Assembly: GCA_021741155.1 (NCBI GenBank)
Contig: JAIOYP010000003.1
Coordinates: 7,950-71,949 of the forward strand
DNA from: Flavobacteriales bacterium
GTDB taxonomy: Bacteria > Bacteroidota > Bacteroidia > UBA10329
Direction of reading: 5' to 3'
DNA: 64,000 nt
Part shown: piece by piece, positions 2,990-55,565 of the stretch
Numbering within the stretch: the first letter of the stretch is position 1
How the letters are laid out: every line of letters begins with the position of its first letter
Notes under the pieces: model-generated
The model's input: only the letters and a program-made list of their open reading frames with translations
What the model was told of the DNA's origin: nothing
The model's database searches: none
Program-made: the position numbers and the translations under genes

Positions 2990-5900
2990 TCATTCAAGCG
3001 TTACGTTTAGACATAGACCACGAAGTTCATGTAGCAATACGTTGAAGGATTCTGGAATACCAGGTGTTGGCATTGCATCTCCTTTCACAATTGCTTCGTA
3101 CGCTTTTGCACGGCCAACCACGTCATCTGACTTGATTGTCAACATCTCTTGAAGGATGTTTGCTGCACCGAAGCCTTCGAGTGCCCAAACCTCCATCTCT
3201 CCCAAACGCTGTCCACCGAATTGAGCCTTACCACCCAATGGCTGTTGCGTAATGAGTGAGTATGGTCCGATTGAACGGGCGTGCATCTTATCGTCAACCA
3301 TGTGGCCAAGTTTCAGCATGTAGATGATACCAACGGTTGCTGGTTGATCGAAACGCTCTCCAGTTCCACCATCATAGAGGTATGTTCTACCCAATGAAGG
3401 AACGCCTGCTTCTGCGATTTCAGCTTCAATCTCATCTAATGTAGCTCCATCGAAAATCGGTGTAGCATACTTACGGTCTAGTTTTTCACCTGCCCAAGCA
3501 AGAATGGTCTCATAGATCTGTCCTAAGTTCATCCTTGATGGTACACCAAGTGGGTTAAGAACGATATCTACAGGAGTTCCATCTTCGAGGAACGGCATAT
3601 CTTCCTCACGAACGATTCGGGCAACTATACCCTTGTTTCCGTGACGACCAGCCATCTTATCACCTACTTTCAGCTTACGCTTCTTAGCGATGTAAACCTT
3701 GGCCAACTGAACGATTCCTGTTGGAAGCTCATCACCGATAGAGATGGCGAACTTCTTTCGTTTGAATATTCCGAGAAGGTCATTCACTTTGATGTTGAAG
3801 TTGTGAAGCAACTCCTTAATCAATGTGTTCTTTTCCTCGTCTGTTGTCCAACCTGCCGGGTTGATGTTGTCATACTCGATAGAAGAAAGCGACTTCTGTG
3901 TGAACTTGGTTCCTTTTGGAATCAAAACCTCACGCAAGTTGTTCTCAACTCCTTGAGCAGTTTTACCATTAACAAGAACGAAAAGCTTATCAACAAGAAC
4001 ACCTTTCAGTTTTGCAAACTCGATTTCGTGCTCCTCGTCTATTTTGGCAAGAATTTTCTTCTCGTCTGCCTTGCTCTTTTTATCCTTTATGTTTCTTGAG
4101 AACAATTTCTTCTCAAGAACAACACCGTTCAATGACGGGGGTGCTTTCAATGAAGCATCTTTCACATCGCCTGCTTTGTCACCAAAGATTGCTCTCAAAA
4201 GCTTTTCCTCTGGAGAAGGGTCTGTTTCTCCTTTCGGAGTAATCTTTCCTATAAGAATATCGCCAGGACCAACCTCAGCTCCGATACGGATTAATCCGTT
4301 CTCATCAAGATCTTTGGTGGCTTCCTCACTTACGTTCGGAATATCAGCAGTAAGTTCTTCCAAACCTCGTTTGGTGTCTCTTACTTCCAACGAATACTCA
4401 TCAATATGAATAGAAGTAAAGATGTCTTCTTTGGCAACTTTCTCAGAGATCACGATTGCATCCTCGAAGTTGTAGCCTTTCCAAGGCATGAAAGCCACTT
4501 TCAGGTTACGTCCAATTGCCAACTCGCCCTTCTCTGTTCCGAAACCATCGCAAAGAACCTCTCCTTGCTTCACCTTCTGACCCTTCGTTACAATCGGCTT
4601 CAGGTTAACAGTTGTGTTCTGGTTCGTCTTGCGGAATTTAACAAGGTTGTAGGTCTTCAGGTCATCCTCGAAGCTAATCAACTTGTCCAGCTCGTTACGT
4701 TCGTAGCGGATGCTTATTTTGTTTGCATCAACATATTCTACAACTCCATCGCGCTCTGCGTTGATAAGTACACGCGAATCACGGGCAACAAGCGGCTCTA
4801 AACCAGTTCCTACGATAGGAGCTTGTGGTCTTAAAAGTGGAACTGCTTGACGCATCATGTTCGACCCCATCAATGCACGGTTCGCATCATCATGCTCCAA
4901 AAACGGAATCAGTGATGCAGCGATAGATGCAATCTGGTTTGGAGCAACGTCCATCAAATTGATGTTGTTCGGGTTTTCCACAGGGAAATCACCTTCCAAA
5001 CGTGCCTTGATACGGTCGCTGCCGAAAGAACCATCGTCTTTCAAGATAGCGTTTGCTTGTGCAATCGTGTTTTTCTCCTCGTCCTCAGCACTCAAGTAAA
5101 TCGGCTCGCTCTTCATATCCACTTTTCCGCTATTCACCTTGCGGTATGGCGTTTCAATGAATCCAAGCTTGTTCACTTTTGCATAAACGCAAAGTGATGA
5201 GATAAGACCGATGTTCGGTCCTTCTGGAGTTTCAATTGTACAAAGTCGTCCGTAGTGCGTGTAGTGAACGTCACGAACCTCGAAACCGGCCCTTTCTCTC
5301 GAAAGACCACCTGGTCCAAGGGCAGACATTCTACGCTTATGAGTTACCTCAGAAAGTGGATTGGTTTGATCCATGAACTGAGATAGTTGGTTTGTTCCAA
5401 AGAACGAGTTGATCACAGAAGAAAGAGTCTTCGCGTTAATCAAGTCAATTGGTGTAAAAACCTCGTTATCACGTACGTTCATTCGCTCGCGGATTGTTCT
5501 TGCCATACGAGCAAGTCCAACTCCGAACTGAGCATATAATTGCTCACCAACCGTACGCACACGTCTGTTGCTCAAGTGGTCAATATCATCCACATCTGTC
5601 TTAGAGTTAATCAGCTCAATCAAATACTTGATGATGCAAATGATGTCCTCCTTGGTCAACACTTTTTGATCCTCTGGCGTATTCAAACCGAGTTTACGGT
5701 TGATACGGAATCGACCTACTTCACCAAGATCGTATCTCTTATCAGAGAAGAACAACTTATCGATGATTCCACGAGCGGTTTCCTCATCTGGTGGTTCAGC
5801 ATTACGAAGTTGACGATAGATGTGCTCTACTGCTTCTTTCTCAGAGTTTGAAGTATCCTTGGCAAGTGTGTTGTAAATGATGGCGAAATCGGCAGCATTC

Positions 5901-6799
5901 ACTTCTTCACGGTGAAGAATCACACTCTTCACTCCCGCTTCAAGGATAAGGTCCATGTGATCCTTATCGATGATGGTCTCACGGTCTATGATTACCTCGT
6001 TACGTTCGATAGATACAACCTCTCCGGTATCCTCATCAACGAAATCCTCTACCCATGAGCGGAGAACTCTTGCAGCCAATTTTCGGCCTTTGATTCTTGC
6101 AAGACCTGCTTTGCTAACTTTTACTTCGTCAGCAAGACCGAAGATTTCCAAGATGTCTTTATCGCTTTCGAAACCAATTGCACGAAGCAAAGTGGTTACC
6201 GGAAGCTTTTTCTTACGGTCGATGTAAGCGTACATCGCACCATGTATGTCAGTCGCAAACTCTATCCAAGAACCTTTGAATGGAATAACACGTGCCGAGT
6301 ACAATTTTGTACCGTTGGCATGGTAGCTCTGTCCAAAGAAAACCCCTGGTGAACGGTGAAGCTGAGATACAACCACACGCTCGGCACCGTTGACCACGAA
6401 TGATCCTTTGGGTGTCATGTACGGGATGGTTCCCAAATACACATCCTGAACGATGGTCTCAAAGTCCTCGTGTTCGGGATCTGTACAATAAAGTTTTAGT
6501 TTGGCCTTAAGAGGTACACTGTGTGTGAGTCCTCTTTCGATACACTCTTCTATAGAATAGCGTGGCGGGTCTATAAAGTAATCCAAGAACTCAAGAACGA
6601 AGTTGTTTCTTGTATCAGTAATCGGAAAATTTTCCGCGAATACTTTAAAGAGACCTTCGTTATGTCTGTTCTCTGGAGTTGTCTCCAGCTGGAAAAAATC
6701 TTTAAAAGACTTGAGCTGTATTTCTAAGAAGTCAGGATAAGGAATCTGATTTTTTGTGGAGGCAAAATTCTTACGTCCGGGTTTTGTGTTCAGCGCCAA
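2990..6799 (-). CDS. rpoB: RNA polymerase beta subunit
   Basis: 1269 aa, TTG start; [19 protein letters not shown] and [14 protein letters not shown] motifs. Confidence 0.99.
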
Positions 6800-31334: not shown

Positions 31335-32687
31335 ATGGAACTCAATGCTCTCTCGGCCGTTTCGCCAATTGATGGGCGTTACCGAAGACACACCAATTCG
31401 CTTTCTGATTATTTCTCTGAAGCTGCGCTGATTAAGTATCGCGTACGGGTTGAAATCGAGTATTTCATACAGCTTTGCGAACTGCCTTTGCCGCAGTTGA
31501 AAGACTTCGACAAATCGCTATTTCCAACACTTAGAAAGATTTATTCGGAGATTTCTGAAGCCGATGCGCAGCGTGTAAAGGAGATTGAGAAAACCACCAA
31601 TCACGATGTGAAGGCTGTGGAATATCTCATCAAAGAGAAAATGGAAACGCTTGGGATTGGCGAGCAAATGGAGTTCGTGCATTTCGGGCTTACCAGCCAA
31701 GACATCAATAATACCGCCACTCCGTTAATGATGAAGGAGGCAACGGAGCAGGTTTACATTCCACTTTTAGATGAGTTAATTGCGAAGCTAAGGTCGTTGG
31801 CCACCGAGTGGAAGGATATTCCATTGTTAGCACGAACCCACGGACAACCAGCCTCACCAACCCGTATGGGAAAGGAAGTGTACGTTTTTGTGGAGCGATT
31901 AGAAGCCCAGAAAAAGCAGTTGCTGGCCATTCCCTTCTCTGCCAAATTCGGTGGGGCCACAGGAAATTTCAATGCGCATTTTGTCGCTTATCCTAAATTG
32001 GATTGGGTTGATTTCGGAAACAACTTTGTAAACGGAACGCTTGGGCTGACCCGCTCGCAGACCACCACGCAGATTGAACATTACGACAACATTGCCGCCT
32101 GGTGCGATGCACTACGCAGGATAAACACCATCATCCTCGACCTTGACCGTGATGTTTGGACCTACGTATCAAACGACCTTTTCAAGCAGAAAATAAAGGA
32201 AGGCGAGGTCGGTTCTTCGGCCATGCCACATAAAGTTAATCCTATTGATTTTGAAAATTCGGAAGGAAACATAGGTCTTGCCAATGCGCTTTTCGGCCAC
32301 TTGGCAGAGAAGCTGCCTGTTTCGCGTTTGCAGCGCGATTTGACCGATAGCACCGTCTTACGGAACATCGGTGTGCCGTTGGGATATACATTGATCGCGT
32401 TCCGATCTACGCTGCGCGGATTGGAGAAACTTCTTATCAATGAGGACAATATCCGCAGGGAATTGGAGAACAATTGGGTGGTGGTGGCCGAGGCCATACA
32501 AACCATCCTCAGAAGGGAAGGTTATCCGAAACCCTACGAGGCATTGAAAGCATTCAGCCGAACCAATGCCAAGTTGGATGAGAAGGCGATGCTAGCGTTT
32601 ATCGATTCGCTGAATATTTCGGAGGCTGTGAAAGTGGAGATGCGTGCGATAACGCCTTTCAATTATACGGGGCAACCCCTCCCCTGA
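31335..32687 (+). CDS. purB: Adenylosuccinate lyase
   Basis: Start MELNALSAVSPIDGRY at 31335; HFGLTSQDIN, GSSAMPHKVNPIDFEN; last codons lie inside a repeat unit. Confidence 0.98.
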   Translation: MELNALSAVSPIDGRYRRHTNSLSDYFSEAALIKYRVRVEIEYFIQLCELPLPQLKDFDKSLFPTLRKIYSEISEADAQRVKEIEKTTNHDVKAVEYLIKEKMETLGIGEQMEFVHFGLTSQDINNTATPLMMKEATEQVYIPLLDELIAKLRSLATEWKDIPLLARTHGQPASPTRMGKEVYVFVERLEAQKKQLLAIPFSAKFGGATGNFNAHFVAYPKLDWVDFGNNFVNGTLGLTRSQTTTQIEHYDNIAAWCDALRRINTIILDLDRDVWTYVSNDLFKQKIKEGEVGSSAMPHKVNPIDFENSEGNIGLANALFGHLAEKLPVSRLQRDLTDSTVLRNIGVPLGYTLIAFRSTLRGLEKLLINEDNIRRELENNWVVVAEAIQTILRREGYPKPYEALKAFSRTNAKLDEKAMLAFIDSLNISEAVKVEMRAITPFNYTGQPLP

Positions 32688-32812
32688 CCCCAACTGACCC
32701 CCTCTAACTCCCCCAAAGGGGGAGAACCGATGCCTCGTTTAAACTTTTGCTTTAATCTCCAATCAACGCACTCCGAATTCCCCTTCCCTTCGGGGAGGGG
32801 TTGGGGGAGGCC
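32676..32812. repeat. GC-rich palindromic REP-like doublet element (intergenic) plus a partial unit
   Basis: Partial unit 32676-32691, left hairpin ctccccc-aaa-gggggag (32698-32726), AT-richer spacer, inverted right hairpin 32774-32810; homologous to copies in hutU and pheT. Confidence 0.9.
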
Positions 32813-32813
32813 G

Positions 32814-33794
32814 TCAATACTCGCTCTTCTTCCTTTTTCGCAACCAGATCTTCTGCCCTGCAATGGGTTCTTCGCCCGGATTGAGCTCGTTGTGCTTATA
32901 GAGCTGCTTCATCAGAATGCCGTATTCCTGCGATATCCACCGTAGGGTTTCGCCTGAGGCCACCATATGGTAATCGTGGCCACGGTTGCGGTTGCGTTTG
33001 GGCTGTAGGTAAATCAATTCTCCCTCATCCAATGGCGCACCGTTCGGCTTGTCGTTGTACCTCAGTATTTGCGCTTTCCGAACTTGGGTTAGGCGCTCCA
33101 GCTTTTCGTATGTATCGCCTTCTTCTACTCTCACATAGCGAATATCATTTCGCAAATACATTTGCCGTTGCGATGTAGAAACGAATGCCTCTTGCGGATT
33201 ATCTGTATTGTGCTTACCTCCCTTTGAACCCTTATCCTTAGGGATTTCTCCTCCTTTAGGTGGGGTTTTCATTCGGTCATATTTGTCGAGTTCGTTCTCT
33301 TCAATGATTTTAATCAGCAATGCCGGATACTTGGGGTTTGTGGCATATCCCGCTTCTTTCAGCCCATGGGCCCATCCTTTGTAATCGGTTATTCTGAGTT
33401 TGAAAAGACCGGCATAACGGTCGCGGCCACTCAAAAATTCGGAATGATCGCGATAGCTTTCGAACACATTCTCGTACACACGAAAGCACTCGCCCTTGGA
33501 GTCATCATCCATGTGAAACTTCTTTCCTTCCCACATGCCGTGGCACTTGATACCGAAATGATTGTTGGCCTTTTGCGCCAGCGTGCTGTTGCCATCACCA
33601 CTTTCGAGGATTCCCTGCGCCAGCGTGATGCTTGCCGGAACGCCACTTATCAGCATTTCCTTTACAGCATAGGGCGCATACATTTCGATGTACTCTGCAC
33701 GGGTCAGTTTATCTGAAGGCTGCGCGAGGTTGCTGCTTTGAGCAACCGCCACCAGATGTAGTGTGATGAGTAATTGAGAGAAGATACCACGCAT
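32814..33794 (-). CDS. Glucosaminidase (GH73/FlgJ-like) with LysM domains
   Basis: ASITLAQGILES, NNHFGIKC, GYATNPKY, LysM HMVASGETLRWISQEYG. Confidence 0.93.
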   Translation of the reverse strand: MRGIFSQLLITLHLVAVAQSSNLAQPSDKLTRAEYIEMYAPYAVKEMLISGVPASITLAQGILESGDGNSTLAQKANNHFGIKCHGMWEGKKFHMDDDSKGECFRVYENVFESYRDHSEFLSGRDRYAGLFKLRITDYKGWAHGLKEAGYATNPKYPALLIKIIEENELDKYDRMKTPPKGGEIPKDKGSKGGKHNTDNPQEAFVSTSQRQMYLRNDIRYVRVEEGDTYEKLERLTQVRKAQILRYNDKPNGAPLDEGELIYLQPKRNRNRGHDYHMVASGETLRWISQEYGILMKQLYKHNELNPGEEPIAGQKIWLRKRKKSEY

Positions 33795-33866
33795 GAGCCA
33801 AAAGTAGATGCCGCAAACAGCCTAACGTTTAATGGGCCTTGATGTTTTAAACACGCTTGTGTTGAT

Positions 33867-34883
33867 TTAGACCAGACCTCTATGCTTCATTCCCATCCAA
33901 CCTTGCAGGCCGCCTGTATGGATGGCGAGGATGGTGGTTCCCTTGAGTAAGGGCGTGTCGCGGCATGCCCCTACAGATTGCTTGTTCAGAATCATATCAT
34001 AGATGCCGAACATCATTTTGCCGGTATAAATGGGGTCGAGGGGAATACCGGTGCGTTCGGTGAAACCGTTGATGAAAGCCATGAGTTCGGGTTTCATCTT
34101 GGCGTAGCCTCCGAAATGGTAGTTGGTTGACAGTCCATAGTCCATGGTCGATGGCGGTCGTAAAGCAGATTCTCCCATTAGTCTTTCAACGTCTTCTTTG
34201 AGAAAGCCGCCACCTTTCAAGACAGGAAAGCCGATCAATCGCTGATCCCGTTTCAAGGTGAGGGCCAATCCGGCAAGGGTGGTTCCTGTTCCAGCCGCGC
34301 AGCACACAACATCAAAAGGTTCCTCCACCTCGGTCAAAATTTCGGCACAGCCGCGCACACCAAAGCCGTTGGCACCCCCTTCGGGAATGATGAAACAGCG
34401 ACCGAAACGATTTTTCAACTCACCCCCTGCTCCACTCGCGGAGCCTTCCTCCTCTCTTGCAAGAAAGGGGGTGTTTGCCTCTGGCAGATGGGGGTGAGTC
34501 AATTTCCGGTAATCCTCACGGGAAACAAACACCAACCGCATATCATTCTCCCTAGCAAATTGCAGGGTTGGGTTGCTGGGGTCGTCCTCTCCGCGGATAA
34601 TGCCGATGCTTTCCATCCCCGCCTTTTTGCAGGCATAGGCCGTGGCGGCAATATGGTTGCTATACGCCCCTCCGAAGGTGAGGATGGTATGATGGTTCTG
34701 CTGAACGGCCTCCGAAAGATTGTATTTCAGCTTGCGCCACTTGTTGCCGCTTATGTGTTCATGGATAAGGTCGTCCCGTTTGATGAGCAAACGCACTCCG
34801 GTGCCATCCAACAGCGGGTCTTTCACCTCCTGAACAGGCAATCCGGCAGGTCTGTACGATTTTGCGTAATCAATGGCATCCAT
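33867..34883 (-). CDS. PLP-dependent ACC deaminase / D-cysteine desulfhydrase family protein (carries in-frame repeat insertions)
   Basis: IKRDDL..SGNKWRKLKY, TFGGAYSNH, PEGGAN, GTGTTLAG, LDPIYTGK, IHTGGLQG. Confidence 0.92.
   Translation of the reverse strand: MDAIDYAKSYRPAGLPVQEVKDPLLDGTGVRLLIKRDDLIHEHISGNKWRKLKYNLSEAVQQNHHTILTFGGAYSNHIAATAYACKKAGMESIGIIRGEDDPSNPTLQFARENDMRLVFVSREDYRKLTHPHLPEANTPFLAREEEGSASGAGGELKNRFGRCFIIPEGGANGFGVRGCAEILTEVEEPFDVVCCAAGTGTTLAGLALTLKRDQRLIGFPVLKGGGFLKEDVERLMGESALRPPSTMDYGLSTNYHFGGYAKMKPELMAFINGFTERTGIPLDPIYTGKMMFGIYDMILNKQSVGACRDTPLLKGTTILAIHTGGLQGWMGMKHRGLV
33947..33974 (-). repeat. GTAG-type REP hairpin inside the CDS
   Basis: - strand GTAGGGGCATG-CCGCGA-CACGCCCTTAC, read in frame as VGACRDTPL. 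Confidence 0.75.
34126..34160. repeat. Heptamer tandem run inside the CDS
   Basis: gttgaca gtccata gtccatg gtcgatg gcggtcg; read as RPPSTMDYGLST on the - strand. Confidence 0.6.
34418..34499. repeat. 82-bp element with terminal inverted repeats inside the CDS
   Basis: actcacccc...ggggtgagt ends; internal hairpins cctctcttgcaagaaaggg and tgcc-tct-ggca. Confidence 0.8.
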
Positions 34884-35150
34884 CGGGGCAAAGGAAGCAG
34901 AAAAGCGGGGGTGCAGAAATCATTCCCACACATAAGCAGATGGTTTTTTCTTGAGGGAGAACCGTTCCGGAACGTAAGCGGATCATTTTTTCTTACCAAT
35001 GAATTATTTATTTGAACCGATTAATTATTAATTGGTGTTTTCTTTATATTTATTGGCATCAATTCGGAATATTACAATACCTTTTTTTATATCATTCATT
35101 CCATATAAATAATAAATTGTTTCCATTTTAATTTTCTTGTAATCGATTTT

Positions 35151-35768
35151 ATGAAAAGTGACTTCATTCCGATAAAACTTGTTGATATAGATGCTTGGGA
35201 AGGTAGATTTTTAACAGCCCTTAACCAGCAGGCAGCATCTTTAGGCATCACACCTCAGCAGCTTATTGATATAACGCAGAAAATCACCAACCACCGAGAA
35301 GCCTATGTGGCCGCTGAGGAGGCTAAGAAGGTTGCCAAGAGTAAAGTGGCCCACATGCAGGCGCTTAAAGTGGATACGATACGCTCCATCCGCAAGATGG
35401 TGCGCCAGATAAAGAGCAGTCCGACCTATGCGTCCGCCAATGCTCATTCTCTTGGAGTGATCGGCCCAGAAGACAGCAAGGAGCTCACCAGCCCTAAACT
35501 TAAGGCACGGTCAGTTGGTGGCAGAGCCGTTATCAGTTACCGCAAATACCGCAGCCACGGAATCTACCTATATGGCAAGCGCGGCAACGAAACTAGCCTA
35601 ACCCTGCTTGCTGTGGATACCCGCAGCCCCTATGTGGATACGCGTCCAAACCTAGACCCTAACGCCCCCGAGCAGCGCGAATATGCTGCCCGATATATGC
35701 TCAATGATGAACCCGTGGGTCAAATGGGAAACATTCATTTGCTGCTAGTGGCCCCAGGAGACCATTGA
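35151..35768 (+). CDS. Hypothetical protein (helical N-domain plus predicted Fn3-like C-domain)
   Basis: DFIP..W N-terminal motif, coiled segment, LGVIGP linker, HGIYLY.KRG.E..LLAVDTRSPYVDTRP; preceded by an AT-rich 160-bp leader. Confidence 0.75.
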   Translation: MKSDFIPIKLVDIDAWEGRFLTALNQQAASLGITPQQLIDITQKITNHREAYVAAEEAKKVAKSKVAHMQALKVDTIRSIRKMVRQIKSSPTYASANAHSLGVIGPEDSKELTSPKLKARSVGGRAVISYRKYRSHGIYLYGKRGNETSLTLLAVDTRSPYVDTRPNLDPNAPEQREYAARYMLNDEPVGQMGNIHLLLVAPGDH

Positions 35769-35818
35769 GCCAAAACCTTCAGCGACCTATTCTTGTTTAC
35801 TTTGCAAACGTGAACGAG

Positions 35819-35998
35819 ATGGACGATTATTTCGGAAAACCGAAGCTTGACCCTGATGATTTTTACTACTCCAAAGAAGGCTACATCGTCTTTACGGAAA
35901 AGTATCTGCTCAAACGGGGTTACTGCTGCAAGAATAGTTGCAAGCATTGCCCGTATGGGTTTGATAGGAAAACGGGCAGGATAAAGCCCCTCCCCTGA
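35819..35998 (+). CDS. DUF5522 family small Cys-rich protein
   Basis: DFYYSKEGYIVFTEKYLLKRGYCCKNSCKHCPYG; start re-called at ATG 35819. Confidence 0.85.
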   Translation: MDDYFGKPKLDPDDFYYSKEGYIVFTEKYLLKRGYCCKNSCKHCPYGFDRKTGRIKPLP

Positions 35999-36026
35999 CC
36001 CCTCCCCAAAGGGGCGGGGAATTCGG
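35987..36026 (+). repeat. Single REP-like unit of the GC-rich family, containing the DUF5522 stop codon
   Basis: cccctcccctgacccctccccaaaggggcggggaattcgg. Confidence 0.88.
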
Positions 36027-36059
36027 ATGGCGTAGATTTGATTATTGACCAAGTGATAA

Positions 36060-38273
36060 ATGGATTTTAAGACCGCAGTTTCAGAAGGTATTCCTAAGCA
36101 ACTTCCAGAAAGACGCCCCCTTGATGCGAGCGTGAGCCACGCCCCCAAACGCAAGGATATTCTCAGTGTCGATGACAAAAAACTAGCGCTACGCAATGCC
36201 CTGCGCTATTTTCCCAAGGAATGGCACGCCCAGCTTGTCGCAGAATTTGCCAATGAACTGAAGGAATACGGCCGCATTTACATGTATCGGTTTATGCCCG
36301 AATATGAGATGCACGCACGGCCAATCTCACACTATCCGGCCAAGTGCCAACAGGCGGCTGCCATTATGCTGATGATTCAGAATAATTTGGATCCTGCCGT
36401 GGCGCAACATCCACAAGAACTGATTACCTACGGTGGAAATGGAGCCGTTTTTCAGAATTGGGCGCAATATCGCCTCACTATGAAATACCTTTCTGAAATG
36501 ACCGAGGCGCAAACTTTGGTGATGTACAGCGGACATCCTATGGGATTGTACCCGAGCCATAAAGATGCACCGCGTGTCGTTGTAACCAACGGCATGATGA
36601 TTCCGAACTACAGCAAACCAGACGATTGGGAGAAATTCAACGCGCTAGGCGTTACCCAATACGGACAGATGACGGCTGGTTCCTATATGTACATTGGTCC
36701 GCAGGGAATTGTGCATGGAACCACCATCACCGTGCTGAATGCAGTCCGGAAACTGACCTCCCCCAACCCCTCCAATGGAGGGGAGAAGCACTCCGATTTA
36801 ACTTTATCTAAAACATCAAATCAAGGCACCCCGAATTCCCCTTCCCTTCGGGGAGGGGTCAGGGGTGGGGTTGGTCTTCCTCTTTTTGTGACCAGCGGAC
36901 TGGGCGGCATGAGCGGAGCCCAGCCAAAGGCGGGCAACATTGCAGGAGTTGTGACCATCTGTGCTGAGATAAATCCGGCAGCAGCCGAAAAACGTCATTC
37001 GCAGGGTTGGGTAGATGAGTTGATTAATGATGTGGATGTGTGTATTGATACCGCTATCGGGTTTCAAGCAAAGAGAAAAGCCCGAAGCATTGCCTTCGTT
37101 GGTAATGTGGTTGATTTGTGGGAACGCCTAGCGGAACGAAACATTCACGTTGATCTGGGTTCAGACCAAACTTCCCTACATAATCCGTGGGCTGGTGGGT
37201 ACTATCCCGTTGGTTTGACTTATGAGGAAAGCAACGCATTGATGGCGAAAGAACCAGAGGTGTTCAAGAAACGTGTACAAGAAACCCTTCGCAGACAGGT
37301 AATAGCCATCAACAAATTGGCGGCAAACGGTATGTATTTCTTCGATTATGGGAATGCATTTCTCCTAGAGGCGGGAAGAGCTGAGGCTGATATATGGACC
37401 TCCCACAACCCTTCCAAAGGAGGGGAGTTGCGCTCCGAACAAGCTTCATCTACACTTTCCAATCAAGGCACCAGTTCTCCCCCATTGGGGGAGTTAGAGG
37501 GGGCTGTTGGTGGGGCCGCTGGGGACGGTGCTTATCGCTACCCAAGCTATGTTCAAGACATAATGGGCCCCATGTGTTTCGATTACGGTTTTGGGCCATT
37601 TCGCTGGGTCTGTGCTTCTGGAAAAGAAGAAGACCTACAAGCCACCGATATCATTGCCGCCCAAGTCATAGAAGAAATGCTTTTGAGCGCGCCTGCTGAA
37701 ATTCGATCTCAACTACAAGACAACTTGCGTTGGGTTCAAGAAGCGCAAAAAAACAAGTTAGTAGTTGGGTCGCAAGCACGCATATTGTATGCAGATGCCG
37801 AGGGAAGAATCAAAATTGCAGCTGCATTTAATCAAGCAATCAAAGAAGGAAAAATTGGTCCCGTGGTTTTGGGTCGAGACCACCATGACGTATCAGGTAC
37901 AGATTCGCCCTACCGAGAAACGTCAAATATTTACGATGGCTCGCAATTTACTGCAGACATGGCAGTTCAGAATTTTGTTGGCGATGCCTTTCGTGGAGCC
38001 ACTTGGATAAGTCTTCACAACGGTGGTGGCGTTGGTTGGGGAGAAGTAGTAAACGGTGGGTTCGGAATGCTTTTGGATGGTTCTGACGATGCCGACCGCA
38101 GGCTCAGAATGATGCTTCATTGGGATGTAAACAACGGAATTTCGCGCAGAAGCTGGGCTCGAAACGAGGGGGCAATCTTTGCCGCCAAACGTGCAATGCA
38201 GCAAGAACCGAATTTGAAAATTACCATCCCCAACTTGGTTGATGATAGCCTCTTAGAAAATCTCGAAAAATAA
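36060..38273 (+). CDS. hutU: Urocanate hydratase (long Bacteroidota type) with two in-frame repeat insertions
   Basis: ELITYGGNG, YGQMTAGSYMYIGPQGIVHGT, GLGGMSGAQPKA, SDQTSLHN, FFDYGNAF, GRDHHDVSGTDSP, HNGGGVGWG. Confidence 0.97.
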   Translation: MDFKTAVSEGIPKQLPERRPLDASVSHAPKRKDILSVDDKKLALRNALRYFPKEWHAQLVAEFANELKEYGRIYMYRFMPEYEMHARPISHYPAKCQQAAAIMLMIQNNLDPAVAQHPQELITYGGNGAVFQNWAQYRLTMKYLSEMTEAQTLVMYSGHPMGLYPSHKDAPRVVVTNGMMIPNYSKPDDWEKFNALGVTQYGQMTAGSYMYIGPQGIVHGTTITVLNAVRKLTSPNPSNGGEKHSDLTLSKTSNQGTPNSPSLRGGVRGGVGLPLFVTSGLGGMSGAQPKAGNIAGVVTICAEINPAAAEKRHSQGWVDELINDVDVCIDTAIGFQAKRKARSIAFVGNVVDLWERLAERNIHVDLGSDQTSLHNPWAGGYYPVGLTYEESNALMAKEPEVFKKRVQETLRRQVIAINKLAANGMYFFDYGNAFLLEAGRAEADIWTSHNPSKGGELRSEQASSTLSNQGTSSPPLGELEGAVGGAAGDGAYRYPSYVQDIMGPMCFDYGFGPFRWVCASGKEEDLQATDIIAAQVIEEMLLSAPAEIRSQLQDNLRWVQEAQKNKLVVGSQARILYADAEGRIKIAAAFNQAIKEGKIGPVVLGRDHHDVSGTDSPYRETSNIYDGSQFTADMAVQNFVGDAFRGATWISLHNGGGVGWGEVVNGGFGMLLDGSDDADRRLRMMLHWDVNNGISRRSWARNEGAIFAAKRAMQQEPNLKITIPNLVDDSLLENLEK
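36752..36870. repeat. REP-like doublet inserted in frame in hutU (insertion 1)
   Basis: Left hairpin cccctcc-aat-ggagggg; right unit 36832-36870 identical over 39 nt to 53705-53743. Confidence 0.92.
37397..37505. repeat. REP-like doublet inserted in frame in hutU (insertion 2)
   Basis: Left unit cctcccacaacccttccaaaggagggg; right unit 37475-37503 is the reverse complement of 32698-32726 at 28/29 nt. Confidence 0.92.
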
Positions 38274-52421: not shown

Positions 52422-52660
52422 TGAAAATTCCAATAATTAAGATCGGCAACTCAAAAGGGCTTCGCATCCCGAAAATGCTCATCGACAGATATGCATTTGA
52501 AGAAGAGGTGGAGGTGGAATTGACAGACGAGGGTCTGGTGGTGCATCCGGTTAAGAAAGTACGTCAAGGTTGGGGTGACGCCTTTGCCAAAATGCACAAG
52601 AACGAGGATGATGTGCTGTTAATGGATGATATATTCAGCGATGAGGAATGGGACGATTGA
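52421..52660 (+). CDS. AbrB/MazE-family antitoxin
   Basis: IIKIGNSKGLRIPK..R.GW..AF; acidic tail. Confidence 0.9.
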   Translation: MKIPIIKIGNSKGLRIPKMLIDRYAFEEEVEVELTDEGLVVHPVKKVRQGWGDAFAKMHKNEDDVLLMDDIFSDEEWDD

Positions 52661-52980
52661 GTGTTGAACAATATGCGGTGGTACTGATCAACCTTGACCC
52701 AACAATAGGAAGTGAGATCAAAAAGACCCGTCCATGCTTGATCATCTCTCCAATCGAAATGAACCAGCACCTACGAACCATAGTTATTGCACCCTTGACC
52801 ACCACCATGCGCAAATATCCTTCGCGCGTCAAAGTGCATTTCTCGGATAAGGAAGGTATGATCGCATTGGACCAAATTCGCACCATTGACAAGCAGCGAA
52901 TCATCAAAACTTTAGGCGGCATCAAACCAAGTGAAATAAAAAATGTGAAAGAGGTATTGATGGAAACGTATGTACGCTAA
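52648..52980 (+). CDS. PemK/MazF-family mRNA interferase toxin
   Basis: NLDPTIGSEIKKTRPCLIISP, DQIRTIDKQR; start 52648 (ATG) or 52657 (TTG). Confidence 0.92.
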   Translation: MGRLSVEQYAVVLINLDPTIGSEIKKTRPCLIISPIEMNQHLRTIVIAPLTTTMRKYPSRVKVHFSDKEGMIALDQIRTIDKQRIIKTLGGIKPSEIKNVKEVLMETYVR

Positions 52981-55565
52981 CCCCTCAAAACCGCGCCAAC
53001 TTCCTGTTCAAATCGCTGTTGGAGTCGGTTCATGGTTTTTTCGATAGTCTTATCGTTAAGGGTGGCTTTCTCATCCTGAAGAATGAAACTCATGGCGTAG
53101 GAGCGCTTGCCTTCTGGTACGCCTTTTCCTTCGTACACATCAAACAAATCAACCTCTTTGAGAATGTTTCTTTCTGTTTGAAAAGCAAGTTGCTCTAGCT
53201 GGGCGTATTTCACGGTCTTGTCTACGAACAGAGCTAAATCTCTTCGAACCGAAGGATACTTGGCCAACTCGGTTACTTCAATCGAATTTAGTGCGGAACG
53301 TTTTAGGACCAAGTCCCAATCGAAATCGGCATAGAACACCTCTTGGTCGATATCAAAAGCCTCAAGAACATCTGCATTGACCAGACCGAAATTGGCGAGG
53401 AGCTTTCCGTCCTTGGTTCGGAATTCCATGCCATAAGCATAGGCTTTTGTGCCCGTCACGTCATGCAACTGTGCTTCGATTCCAAGTCTGTTTAGAATGG
53501 ATTTTACCGCGCCATGAATATGATGGAAAGTGGCATTTCCTGCCGCAGCATTCCAACGTTCCTTCTGCCACCTGCCAGTGATGAACAGTGCCAGAGAACG
53601 GTGTTCGCTGTAAGGCCAAACAACCCCATCGGCCCCCGCCCCCTCCAAAGGAGGGGAGGTGCGCTCCGATTTAACATTACCAGAATCGTCCGACCGAGTC
53701 ACCGCGAATTCCCCTTCCCTTCGGGGAGGGGTCAGGGGTGGGGCTTGCTTCCCTTCTTTGGAGGGGTTGGGGGAGGTTTCATACAGATTTCCGAATTCGT
53801 AGAATTTGCAGTTCAGATTCTGATGTCGGATGTTACGCGAAACGCTTTCCAAACCTCCAAAAAGCAATGACTGACGCATGGCGTTGAGGTCGGTACTGAG
53901 CGGATTCAGAATCTCCACCTTAGCATTGGCCTGTTCTGGAAAAAGCTTGTCCATGTAACTCGCTTTCGTCAGCGAATTGTTCATGATCTCGTTGAAGCCT
54001 TGGGCCGTCAACGCATCCGAAACCAAGTTGCGCAACTGCTCTGGGCTTTTCTTATTGGAAGCAATCAACGGTACGCGTAATTGTCCGCTGCCCAAGATGC
54101 GGTCGTAGCCATAAACGCGGAGTACCTCTTCAATCACATCAGCTTCGCGGGTCACATCATTCTTGAAGGACGGCACGGAGAGTTTCAGCCCGTCTTCCCT
54201 CTTCTTCTCCACATAAATACCCAGATCATCGAGAATGGAAAGCACGGTTTCCTTGGGAATGTCCTGCCCGATGAGTCGGTTGATATTGGCAAACTTCACC
54301 TCCACCTTTTGGTGCGGAATCGGATTTGGATAGATGTCGGTGATGACAGACAGTTTTCCGCCAGCAACTTCCTGAATGAGAAGGGCGGCACGTTTAGCTG
54401 CATAAACAACCGTTTCGGGGTCGATTCCTCGCTCAAACCGGAAAGAAGCATCGGTGCTCAATCCATGACGTTTGGCCGTTTTTCGGATGGAAACAGGATT
54501 AAAGTAGGCGCTTTCCAAAAACACATTCTTGGTTTTTTCGGTCACACCTGAGTTCAATCCACCAAACACACCTGCAATGCACATACCATCGCTTGCATTG
54601 CAAATCATCAAATCATCTTGATTCAAATCTCGTTCAACTTCATCCAACGTGGTAAATTTCTCTCCTGTCTTGGCTGTGCGTACAACTACTTTATGATCTT
54701 TAATCTTATCGGCATCAAACGCATGCAGCGGCTGACCCAGTTCGTGCAATACGAAATTGGTGACATCAACCACGTTATTAATAGGCCGAGCGCCAATGGC
54801 TTTCAGTCGATTTTGCAACCAAGCTGGCGATGGTTTTACTTCAATTCCTTGAATGTAAAGCCCAACGTAACGCGGACAAGCCTCCAAATCCTGCACATCG
54901 ATGGCGATTGGGTTCTCCTTCAATTCGGCCGAATAGCCCATCACATCAGGCCATTCCAATTTCAGGTTTTCGTGACCACCTTTTATCTCACGGATAACAG
55001 CTCTCAGGTCGCGCGCCACGCCAATATGGCTCATGGCATCGGCTCGGTTTGGCGTGAGACCTATCTCGAGCACAAAATCATTTTCAATCTTGAAATACTC
55101 GGAAGCCGGTGTCCCAACCTTTACATCGGCAGGAAGAACCATGATACCATCGTGGCCCTGGCCTAGGCCAATCTCATCTTCGGCACAAATCATCCCTTCA
55201 GATACTTGCCCTCTAATTTTCGATTTTTTAATCTCAAACGGCTCTCCTTCTGATGGATACAGCTTTGCTCCGACCACAGCTACAACTACCTTCTGCCCTG
55301 CTGCAACATTTGGCGCGCCACAAACGATATCCAACGGTTCACCTGTTCCAATATTCACTTTGGTGCAGTTAAGACGATCGGCATCGGGGTGTTTTTCCTT
55401 GCTCAAAACTTCGCCAATAACCAGTCCTTCTAAACCGCCTTCCACAGACGAAAAAGGGATGACTTTTTCTACTTCCAAACCGCTTCCCGTTAGGAGCGCG
55501 GCCGCTTCGTTCACGTCAAGGTTGATAGGTAAATATTGGCGAAGCCAGTTGTAGGAAATGTCCAT
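52977..55565 (-). CDS. pheT: Phenylalanine--tRNA ligase beta subunit with an in-frame repeat insertion
   Basis: HPDADRL, VCGAPNV, GLTPNRADA, GQPLHAFD, RFERGID, PSVRRDLA FDX-ACB domain; 862 aa. Confidence 0.98.
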   Translation of the reverse strand: MDISYNWLRQYLPINLDVNEAAALLTGSGLEVEKVIPFSSVEGGLEGLVIGEVLSKEKHPDADRLNCTKVNIGTGEPLDIVCGAPNVAAGQKVVVAVVGAKLYPSEGEPFEIKKSKIRGQVSEGMICAEDEIGLGQGHDGIMVLPADVKVGTPASEYFKIENDFVLEIGLTPNRADAMSHIGVARDLRAVIREIKGGHENLKLEWPDVMGYSAELKENPIAIDVQDLEACPRYVGLYIQGIEVKPSPAWLQNRLKAIGARPINNVVDVTNFVLHELGQPLHAFDADKIKDHKVVVRTAKTGEKFTTLDEVERDLNQDDLMICNASDGMCIAGVFGGLNSGVTEKTKNVFLESAYFNPVSIRKTAKRHGLSTDASFRFERGIDPETVVYAAKRAALLIQEVAGGKLSVITDIYPNPIPHQKVEVKFANINRLIGQDIPKETVLSILDDLGIYVEKKREDGLKLSVPSFKNDVTREADVIEEVLRVYGYDRILGSGQLRVPLIASNKKSPEQLRNLVSDALTAQGFNEIMNNSLTKASYMDKLFPEQANAKVEILNPLSTDLNAMRQSLLFGGLESVSRNIRHQNLNCKFYEFGNLYETSPNPSKEGKQAPPLTPPRREGEFAVTRSDDSGNVKSERTSPPLEGAGADGVVWPYSEHRSLALFITGRWQKERWNAAAGNATFHHIHGAVKSILNRLGIEAQLHDVTGTKAYAYGMEFRTKDGKLLANFGLVNADVLEAFDIDQEVFYADFDWDLVLKRSALNSIEVTELAKYPSVRRDLALFVDKTVKYAQLEQLAFQTERNILKEVDLFDVYEGKGVPEGKRSYAMSFILQDEKATLNDKTIEKTMNRLQQRFEQEVGAVLRG
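53631..53778. repeat. Three REP-like units inserted in frame in pheT
   Basis: Units at 53631-53658 (+), 53705-53743 (-) and 53751-53776 (-); spacer gcgctccgatttaac matches 36788-36802. Confidence 0.93.

Follow-up and report, generated by a model that had tools for sequence, protein, structure and literature searches.

The gene for the beta subunit of phenylalanyl-tRNA synthetase, pheT, very probably contains a tolerated, translated insertion of a mobile repeat in the Flavobacteriales genome considered here, where a GC-rich palindromic element lies in frame within the coding sequence of this essential enzyme. The gene is located in a stretch of 64,000 nucleotides of contig JAIOYP010000003.1 (assembly GCA_021741155.1, positions 7,950 to 71,949), which we refer to as the window. 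The reading that we favor, with a probability of roughly 0.7, is that the insert is a selfish, non-autonomous palindromic mini-element that is tolerated in frame in pheT and that would owe its mobility to nucleases of the DUF559 family. For the last component taken separately, mobilization by DUF559 nucleases, we consider the odds to be about even.

Results

Anatomy of the insert

The PheT protein of the window has all five PheT domains recognized by Pfam (tRNA_bind, B3_4, B5, tRNA_synthFbeta and FDX-ACB), and it matches E. coli PheT (3pco_B) at E 7e-142. The tRNA_synthFbeta match corresponds to the catalytic-like CLM domain (residues 501-750). E. coli PheT has 17 residues at a site where the window PheT has 64. 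Between ...CKFYEFGNLYE and WPYSEHRSLALFITG the window protein reads TSPNPSKEGKQAPPLTPPRREGEFAVTRSDDSGNVKSERTSPPLEGAGADGVV, a peptide rich in Pro, Ser, Gly and Glu. The DNA that encodes the inserted peptide is free of stop codons, is divisible by three in length, and has 63% G+C compared with 44% for the window.

The inserted DNA consists of one two-hairpin element of ~115 nt, in reverse orientation with respect to the gene, and an additional solo terminal hairpin of 29 nt (Table 1). Terminal inverted repeats are present in the two-hairpin element, the left end CCCCCAACCCCTCC pairing with the right end GGAGGGGTCAGGGG. The solo hairpin follows the G-rich tail of the element after the four nucleotides CTTG. 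It reads CTTCCCTTCTTTGGAGGGGTTGGGGGAGG on the plus strand, which corresponds to the left-end type in reverse complement, and CCTCCCCCAACCCCTCCAAAGAAGGGAAG in the sense of the gene, where it encodes TSPNPSKEGK. The solo hairpin and the left end of the element together form inverted repeat I1, with arms of 26 nt at 53633-53658 and 53748-53773 that are 85% complementary.

A profile built from the copies detects five members of the repeat family in the window with nhmmer (E 1e-36 to 8e-12), three of them in frame inside genes, namely one in pheT and two in hutU. All full copies are on the plus strand. Positions 53705-53743 in pheT and 36832-36870 in the first hutU copy are identical over 39 nt on that strand. 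Since hutU is encoded on the plus strand and pheT on the minus strand, the repeat is translated from opposite strands in the two genes: hutU reads the element in sense (TSPNPSNGGEKHSD...NSPSLRGGVRGG), and pheT reads its complement (APPLTPPRREGEF...SPPLEGAGA). A chance origin of the copies is excluded, because a 33-nt core occurs twice in the window with 0 occurrences expected, and the hairpin motif occurs five times with 0.05 expected.

An earlier, sequence-only reading of this DNA had proposed about 50 repeat-derived residues inside PheT, had ascribed them to three hairpin units (a doublet plus an extra unit), and had pointed out the 39 nt in common with hutU that are translated from the opposite strand. 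All three points hold: the peptide is as quoted there and comprises 53 residues, the three hairpins map to distinct positions (Table 1), and the exact coordinates and gene strands confirm the opposite readings of the common stretch.

Table 1. Features of the pheT insert and copies of the repeat family in the window
Feature	Position	Strand	Basis
pheT, phenylalanyl-tRNA synthetase beta subunit	52977-55565	-	List of open reading frames; 862 aa, intact open reading frame
Inserted coding segment, PheT residues 597-649 (53 aa)	53619-53777	-	Codon-level comparison with empty sites in L001 and L006
Beta-strand 1 of motif-2-like hairpin, CKFYEFGNLYE, aa 587-596	53778-53807	-	AlphaFold2 strand 587-597; aligns with PylRS motif 2
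Beta-strand 2 of motif-2-like hairpin, WPYSEHRSLALFIT, aa 650-663	53577-53618	-	AlphaFold2 strand 652-663; hhalign
Complete two-hairpin miniature element in pheT	53628-53743	+ (antisense to pheT)	Alignment with hutU and intergenic copies; nhmmer E 1.3e-32
Left inverted repeat and hairpin of pheT element	53633-53658	+	Stem-loop CCCCTCCAAAGGAGGGG at 53640-53656
Middle of pheT element, 52 nt	53659-53710	+	
Right hairpin CCCCTTCCCTTCGGGGAGGGG and G-rich tail TCAGGGGTGGGG of pheT element	53711-53743	+	
Solo 29-nt terminal hairpin in pheT (the extra unit)	53748-53776	-	Inverted repeat I1; same sequence type as phylum-wide 29-mer
Family copy at hutU site 1, in frame, encodes TSPNPSNGGEKHSDLTLSKTSNQGTPNSPSLRGGVRGG	36755-36870	+	nhmmer E 8.7e-37
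Family copy at hutU site 2, in frame	37397-37519	+	nhmmer E 2.7e-31
Intergenic family copy, between convergent purB and glucosaminidase gene	32696-32820	+	nhmmer E 3.2e-33; Pfam for flanking genes
Partial family copy (right hairpin and middle), abutting hutU start codon	35985-36060	-	nhmmer E 7.6e-12

An insertion at a recurrently used site

The closest relatives of the window PheT are proteins of 815 aa with 80-87% identity (P0003 at 87%, P0005 and about 50 others). At the insert site they have a conserved loop of seven residues, which reads EKNENGK, EKNTKGE or GMSGKEK. At the codon level, the relatives L001 and L006 read YE-KNENGK-WPY, and the window has 53 codons in place of six to seven loop codons; the DNA of the empty site reads TTYGGNAAYYTNTAYGAR...TGGCCNTAY. 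Alignment with relatives had been put forward in the sequence-only reading as a check, and since it reveals no equally long conserved loop, the insertion finding stands. As judged from these alignments, the PheT segment is an insertion and not an ancestral loop.

Inserts are present in eight PheT lineages (P0001, P0002, P0004, P0012, P0017, P0020, P0028 and P0040), which are scattered on the PheT tree, each beside insert-free sisters that have the ancestral loop. The insert of P0002 is a full, sense-oriented element, those of the window and P0017 are elements in antisense orientation, and those of P0004 and P0020 consist of a hairpin pair with no middle. The other three (P0012, P0028 and P0040) belong to a second subfamily, which encodes HPQPLL...KEGS...SPPEKGEY. 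The added lengths range from +48 to +156 nt and are multiples of three in all eight variants. No inserts were found at other PheT sites in this clade, all eight insertions being in the one loop.

Because the filled alleles lack the original loop codons, excision could not restore the ancestral loop. The scattered distribution would consequently reflect either several independent gains, or lateral spread of an inserted allele by recombination followed by turnover in place. For the middle of the pheT copy in the window, the most similar counterpart (81%) is the middle of the pheT copy in L002. When metagenomes were scanned by pattern for further PheT alleles with the hairpin in sense orientation, the L002-type allele was the only one found. 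The hutU gene (urocanase, 36060-38273) offers a parallel. At its site 1, elements of different subfamilies occupy the same position in the window and in L002, which makes this position a second recurrent target; site 2 is filled in the window only and is empty in L002.

In a distant lineage, P0100, the PheT protein has the short segments PPAGRAG and LTPTLSKGEGD at two other positions, which are like hairpin-encoded peptides by sequence resemblance only. Other PheT loops may be permissive in other lineages.

Reality and constraint of the inserted alleles

The source of the window looks like a metagenome-assembled contig and its exact pheT allele was seen once, so that an artefact of assembly or binning has to be considered, in which a repeat was collapsed into pheT. 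Repeats can also break or misjoin assemblies, and P0072, a partial PheT with 601 aa, may have arisen in this way. However, the junctions keep the frame exactly and seven other lineages have inserts in the same loop. Moreover, the L002-type allele is represented by 10 distinct sequences from independent assemblies in four sources (NCBI, ENA, JGI and Logan), with nine variable sites elsewhere in the protein and none in the insert, which is identical throughout. The P0012 allele is present on 6-11 contigs. We regard an artefact as extremely improbable.

The constancy of the insert within the L002-type population, together with the expansion of the same loop in many lineages, could alternatively mean that the loop has been co-opted for a function, either as an interaction surface or in the regulation of the synthetase. 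Yet the insert differs between lineages in sequence, length, orientation and subfamily, most relatives are without any insert, and the segment is predicted to be disordered (see below). In addition, P0028 and P0134, which belong to one 90% cluster, differ by many substitutions as well as indels inside the insert, a rapid divergence that suggests relaxed constraint. We assign little probability to co-option.

Structural site and read-through

An AlphaFold2 model of PheT, computed with 50 relatives, has a mean pLDDT of 81. In the model the two strands listed in Table 1 form a beta-hairpin, and residues 600-648 between them are disordered with pLDDT values of 25-38. The rest of the domain is modeled confidently, with the insert at the tip of the beta-hairpin. 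The insert peptide is accordingly predicted to lie on the protein surface and to leave the fold undisturbed.

The identity of the hairpin was addressed by profile alignment. With hhalign, a profile of the insert-free domain aligns with the catalytic domain of PylRS with a probability of 87% and E 4e-6. The stretch CKFYEFGNLYE-KNENGK-WPYNEY pairs in this alignment with the PylRS segment that comprises class II motif 2 and its loop, and the C-terminal part of the domain pairs with GAGFGLERLL of PylRS, its motif 3. A profile search of the PDB independently reaches PylRS at E 0.003, and also finds 3ig2 and 3ica, structures of isolated Bacteroidales CLM domains. The sequence-only reading had assigned FEFG..Y to the class II motif-2 strand of the inactive domain, had suggested a structure model, and had concluded that an essential synthetase tolerates a selfish insertion in that loop. 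The strand assignment was correct by hhalign, the PDB profile search and the AlphaFold2 model, and the modeled order is indeed strand, disordered stretch, strand. The tolerance is supported by the seven further insert-bearing lineages and by the allele that is unchanged in 10 assemblies.

Translational bypass of GC-rich hairpins within coding regions is known from T4 gene 60 and the yeast mitochondrial 'byps', and this raises the question of whether the segment is removed before or while the protein matures, as an intron or an intein or through ribosomal bypass, to give a PheT without the peptide. Against this, searches of 53400-54000 and 32500-37700 gave no meaningful Rfam match to an intron or ribozyme, and Pfam found no intein domain in PheT, only the five PheT domains. 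With 53 aa the insert falls short of intein size, and it ends ...DGVV followed by W, lacking the junction chemistry of His-Asn plus Cys/Ser/Thr. There is also no stop codon after a take-off site, as would characterize programmed bypass, and the frame of the insert is open throughout. An in-frame length is not required under removal from the RNA or the protein, and with all eight variants in frame, translation is the simplest reading. The PheT insert is thus probably translated through, and removal strikes us as highly improbable.

A hairpin found throughout Bacteroidota

Exact copies of the hairpin CCTCCCCCAACCCCTCCAAAGGAGGGGAG are found throughout Bacteroidota. A 26-mer contained in the repeat, CCCCCAACCCCTCCAANGGAGGGGAG, has exact copies in at least 119 stretches of species-representative genomes, almost all from this phylum. 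The hosts include Prevotella, Prolixibacteraceae, Flavobacteriaceae, Chitinophagaceae, Lewinellaceae, Pedobacter, Chryseobacterium and others, and cultured strains are among them. In some places the 26-mer stands alone as a solo hairpin; in others it forms the left end of a two-hairpin element, and the middles of these elements are of many different kinds. Among the matches listed, 21 of 122 are in long open reading frames (ORFs), and 14 of these 21 are in the SPNPSKGGE frame. Among the products of the ORFs that host the 26-mer, Pfam identifies LeuRS, IleRS, AlaRS, an IcmF-type mutase, Lhr helicase, a U32 peptidase and GH94. Viral contigs gave only seven hairpin matches in 2.9 million, so that phages are not obvious vectors.

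DUF559 nuclease modules with ends of the same type

When the surroundings of about 120 hairpin loci were searched for a common gene, only host genes were found, with one lead: ORFs for LeuRS (L093:3636-4065) and IleRS (L201) contain a DUF559 domain that is flanked by a pair of hairpins. DUF559-like sequence occurs within 8 kb in five of 119 hairpin loci and in none of 160 control loci. We sampled 80 DUF559 loci from species genomes. C-run/G-run hairpins are present on both sides of the DUF559 sequence in 62 of them and on at least one side in 76, compared with a background density of 0.033 hairpins per kb (control loci, 627 kb in total). Within a module, one end is the reverse complement of the other over 30-37 nt (e.g., 32/35, 33/34 and 33/36 positions), and the two co-vary between loci. 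The left repeat consists of a C-run tail and a CCCCTCC-loop-GGAGGGG hairpin, and the right repeat is its reverse complement, an arrangement that is also found in the window element. In one locus (L344), the exact 26-mer of the window is the left repeat of a DUF559 ORF. The window element thus shares its end architecture with nuclease-encoding modules.

The modules are 430-500 nt in size and each encodes one DUF559 endonuclease, of the Vsr-like PD-(D/E)xK type; five aligned sequences have a conserved D...ExDG..H motif. In a published classification, DUF559 is grouped with Vsr and a group I intron homing endonuclease (PMC3424549). In about 46 of the 80 sampled loci the module lies in frame within a long host ORF, and these hosts include LeuRS (at two sites), IleRS/ValRS-type synthetases, RecG, a UvrD-like helicase, MetH and HsdR. 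The left repeat of an embedded module is translated as (S/L)PxxPS(K/E/Q)GG(G/E), which is the dominant frame of the solo hairpins and mini-elements. Embedded modules occur in many Bacteroidota and a few other phyla, and have neither intein nor intron; examples are L299 (UvrD-like), L302 and L303 (RecG), L309 (MetH), L316 and L332 (class I aminoacyl-tRNA synthetases) and L371 (HsdR, in Pseudanabaena). A literature search of an incomplete library found no description of the hairpin or of hairpin-ended DUF559 modules inside genes.

Two further loci may be mentioned here. The relative L004, whose PheT has an insert of the second subfamily, contains at 5670-6260 a decayed DUF559 gene, in the form of two short ORFs, between recG and the upstream genes. 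It is followed by the hairpins CCCCCTTTGAAAGGGGG and CTCCTTTTAAAGGAG, and an 11-nt stretch, TCCTTTTAAAG, is common to these hairpins and the L004 pheT insert. In L167 (1700-2900), three near-identical two-hairpin elements are arranged in tandem, 265 and 535 nt apart, beside a free-standing DUF559 gene.

Other traces of the repeat and neighboring genes

A mini-gene of 59 aa with a DUF5522 match in Pfam (35819-35999) takes its stop codon from the partial repeat copy at 35985-36060. Both this gene and purB end with ...CCC CTC CCC TGA (Pro-Leu-Pro-stop) derived from the repeat end (35985-35999 and 32676-32687, respectively), and the PurB C-terminus in the relative L002 is ...GLSPI*. By supplying these two gene ends, the repeats rewrite C-termini and stop codons. 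A degenerate hairpin, CCCCTCCGAAGGTGAGG, is located at 34667-34683 inside a PALP-enzyme gene (33867-34883, minus strand), which reads ...EEEGSASGAGGELKN... at this point; it could be the decayed remnant of an old in-frame copy. In L002 the orthologous enzyme has 455 aa, compared with 338 aa in the window.

Downstream of pheT lies a convergent PemK/MazF-type toxin gene (52648-52980, plus strand; Pfam E 1e-26), which overlaps the pheT stop codon by 4 nt. The corresponding slot contains a YoeB toxin gene in L003 and no toxin gene in L002, L005 and L006, which indicates a variable slot that holds toxin-antitoxin genes in some lineages.

Discussion

How the element may have entered pheT

A scenario that accommodates these properties is as follows. 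A unit of ~115 nt with two GC-rich inverted-repeat hairpins, plus a sense-oriented solo hairpin, would have replaced six to seven codons of the motif-2-like loop. Judging from the frame, the relatives and the model, the ribosome would read through the insert, and the 53 residues would extend from the hairpin tip as a disordered segment, leaving the strands and the rest of the enzyme intact. The mini-elements and solo hairpins could be moved or copied in trans by a DUF559 nuclease through a homing-like route of break and repair. Such a route would explain why the same PheT loop and hutU site are used repeatedly in related lineages, why conserved genes are hosts, and why the insertions supplant loop codons instead of producing flanking duplications. 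It would also explain the predominance of the SPNPSKGGE frame, the one that continues from the left repeat into the nuclease.

A more specific version, which we put forward tentatively and hold to be somewhat less probable than even, is that the PheT insert is a miniature of a previously undescribed mobile element, a ~450-nt DUF559 module with hairpin inverted repeats that resides in frame in housekeeping genes. The ends of the module would be built for translation as harmless linkers rich in Pro, Ser and Gly, making an intron or intein unneeded. What the host protein would keep as a lasting surface loop is the nuclease or, once this has decayed, the hairpin peptides alone, and homing by the nuclease would account for the recurrent hits in PheT and hutU loops across lineages. 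The window copies themselves are at most miniature relatives of the hairpin-bounded modules. We considered that the mini-element arose by internal deletion of a DUF559 module and rejected this origin, because its middle matches this lineage only.

There are several points that weigh against the reading we prefer. The window contains no DUF559 gene, and only five of 119 hairpin loci have one nearby. The middles of the window elements are about 50 nt, a non-coding size, and are lineage-specific with no match in the DUF559 loci, so that the ends alone are shared. The pheT elements of the window and L002 are in opposite orientation despite having the most similar middles, which simple homing or inversion does not explain; an inversion between the terminal repeats was examined and rejected, as it does not convert the L002 arrangement into that of the window, which has an extra complete hairpin and CAAG. 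No target-site duplication is recognizable on comparison of filled and empty pheT sites, where the replacement of loop codons means that no duplication or clean junction is definable, and the intergenic site is too diverged to be read for one. The PheT tree is a neighbor-joining tree of ~70 relatives with no support values, and for that reason the gain events are not countable exactly. The exact allele of the window is on a single contig, as noted above. Finally, the RNA folding energy of the pheT segment is not better than that of shuffled sequences (z = -0.5) and the DNA folding is modestly better (z = -2.2), so folding energy was not used as evidence.

Some of these points would be expected if the element were selfish and tolerated but DUF559 had no part in its movement. 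The mobilizer would then be another transposase, or replication or recombination slippage, with DUF559 as cargo or a favored landing site for the hairpins, and the recurrence in the PheT loop would be due to selection alone, this being the only permissive site. The unrelated middles, the scarcity of DUF559 near the hairpins and the insertion of both orientations at the same site fit this alternative, as do the hairpin-like segments at two other sites in P0100, which are assigned by resemblance only. It does not readily account for the matched, co-varying inverted repeats around 62 of 80 DUF559 ORFs, which argue that hairpin, ORF and hairpin are one unit, nor for the lack of any other gene common to the surroundings of the hairpins, nor for eight of eight insertions of the clade falling in one loop of an 815-aa protein. 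We consider this alternative unlikely.

A second candidate for the mobilizer is a RAYT, an IS200-like Y1 transposase, in which case the hairpins would be REP or REPIN elements. Two inverted hairpins around a spacer are a REPIN-like architecture, Y1_Tnp genes occur within a few kb of the hairpins in L172 and in L130/L117, and the Bacteroidetes TnpA_REP subclass 2.6 has 'atypical secondary structures' (PMC6006769). However, the element has no GTAG or CGTC head, its ends reading CCTCCCCCAACCCCTCC..., and of the five copies in the window, three to four lie within genes. Across 80 loci of the RAYT family of L172, a hairpin lies within 2.5 kb in one, the original locus, and the RAYT gene there is flanked by a GTAG-type REP of its own, GTAGGGGCGAATTGAATTCGCCC. 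For that family, RAYT as the mobilizer was rejected, and overall we give the REP explanation only a slight chance. In L213 (2700-2760), a Prolixibacteraceae contig of the same family as L172, two copies of the GTAGGGGCGAATTGAATTCGCCC REP are located in the ~100 nt upstream of a RAYT-like gene. No GTAG-tagged REP was found in the 330 nt read downstream of that gene, and the REP is unrelated to the hairpin studied here.

Comparison with known systems

The closest parallel to our reading of a tolerated mini-element comes from Rickettsia, where the palindromic elements RPE-1 to RPE-7 have been described (Ogata et al. 2000; Matsutani et al. 2013, PMC3767692). Rickettsia palindromic elements (RPEs) are palindromes of 100-150 nt that are found in frame in housekeeping genes and encode peptides on the protein surface (reviewed in PMC10969869). 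RPE-7 is present in solvent-exposed regions of pheT and ileS in spotted-fever Rickettsia, and both a hotspot and an old insertion that diverged were considered for it (PMC3767692). The Bacteroidota family is likewise a multi-copy palindrome in frame in unrelated housekeeping genes, with copies that are absent from orthologues (the empty pheT sites of L001 and L006, and hutU site 2 of L002) and peptides that are predicted to be solvent-exposed. It differs in its phylum and in lifestyle, as judged by the environmental metagenome samples of close relatives. Its hairpins are GC-rich with C-runs and G-runs, its terminal 29-mer is exact phylum-wide, solo hairpins occur as inserts of 9-10 aa, both orientations are used, and the ends are shared with a nuclease module. 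Given the composition, membership in the RPE sequence families is unlikely.

The element also resembles MITEs (miniature transposable elements with inverted repeats) such as Correia, ERIC and BOX, which are small, have terminal inverted repeats, many copies and no coding capacity of their own, and occasionally have in-frame copies (PMC10969869). About 90% of bacterial MITEs are intergenic (PMC11602168). The terminal repeats of MITEs are present in the window element, but a target-site duplication was not seen, and the candidate partner is a PD-(D/E)xK nuclease rather than a DDE transposase. With REP/REPIN-RAYT systems it shares two inverted hairpins around a spacer and a high copy number. Unlike those systems it lacks the GTAG or CGTC tag, a head that serves as a criterion for REPs (PMC3733652), and it is intragenic and shows no RAYT association in 80 loci.

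Vsr-like homing endonucleases have been described in connection with 'fractured genes' (PMC2677866) and a VSR/DUF559 clade (PMC3424549). The DUF559 modules are similar to homing endonucleases such as I-Bth0305I in that they are located in conserved housekeeping genes (aminoacyl-tRNA synthetases, helicases and MetH), recur at the same site across lineages, and have decayed or miniature derivatives. In contrast to the endonucleases of inteins and group I introns, the modules contain no splicing element, stay in the protein and are bounded by hairpin repeats; the role of the nuclease in their movement is that of a candidate. GC-rich hairpins in coding sequences of AT-richer genomes are also known from the T4 gene 60 'hop', the mitochondrial 'byps' and the GC clusters of yeast mitochondria. 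Bypass elements break the frame and are skipped, whereas the PheT-type inserts keep the frame in multiples of three. The hallmarks of REP/RAYT, intein, intron and bypass elements were each absent from the insert.

Implications

In our view, the pheT insert represents a new family of translated selfish palindromic insertions in an essential gene, a phenomenon known mainly from Rickettsia before. What has been seen in the in-frame repeats of Rickettsia now appears in Bacteroidota, with a 29-nt end that is identical across the phylum. What is added is the recurrent targeting of one motif-2-like loop, and the DUF559 connection as a testable hypothesis of mobility. The insertions amount to a naturally made map of loops that are permissive in essential enzymes, including the motif-2-like loop of PheT, the two hutU sites, and sites in LeuRS, IleRS and AlaRS. 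They give rise to artefacts in annotation and alignment, in the form of odd Pro/Ser/Gly-rich inserts in core genes, and the repeats can provide genes with stop codons and novel C-termini. Should the DUF559 link hold, a role would be assigned to a large domain family whose function is unknown, and the element would be an example of mobile DNA that has solved the problem of life inside genes by being translatable, rather than by splicing.

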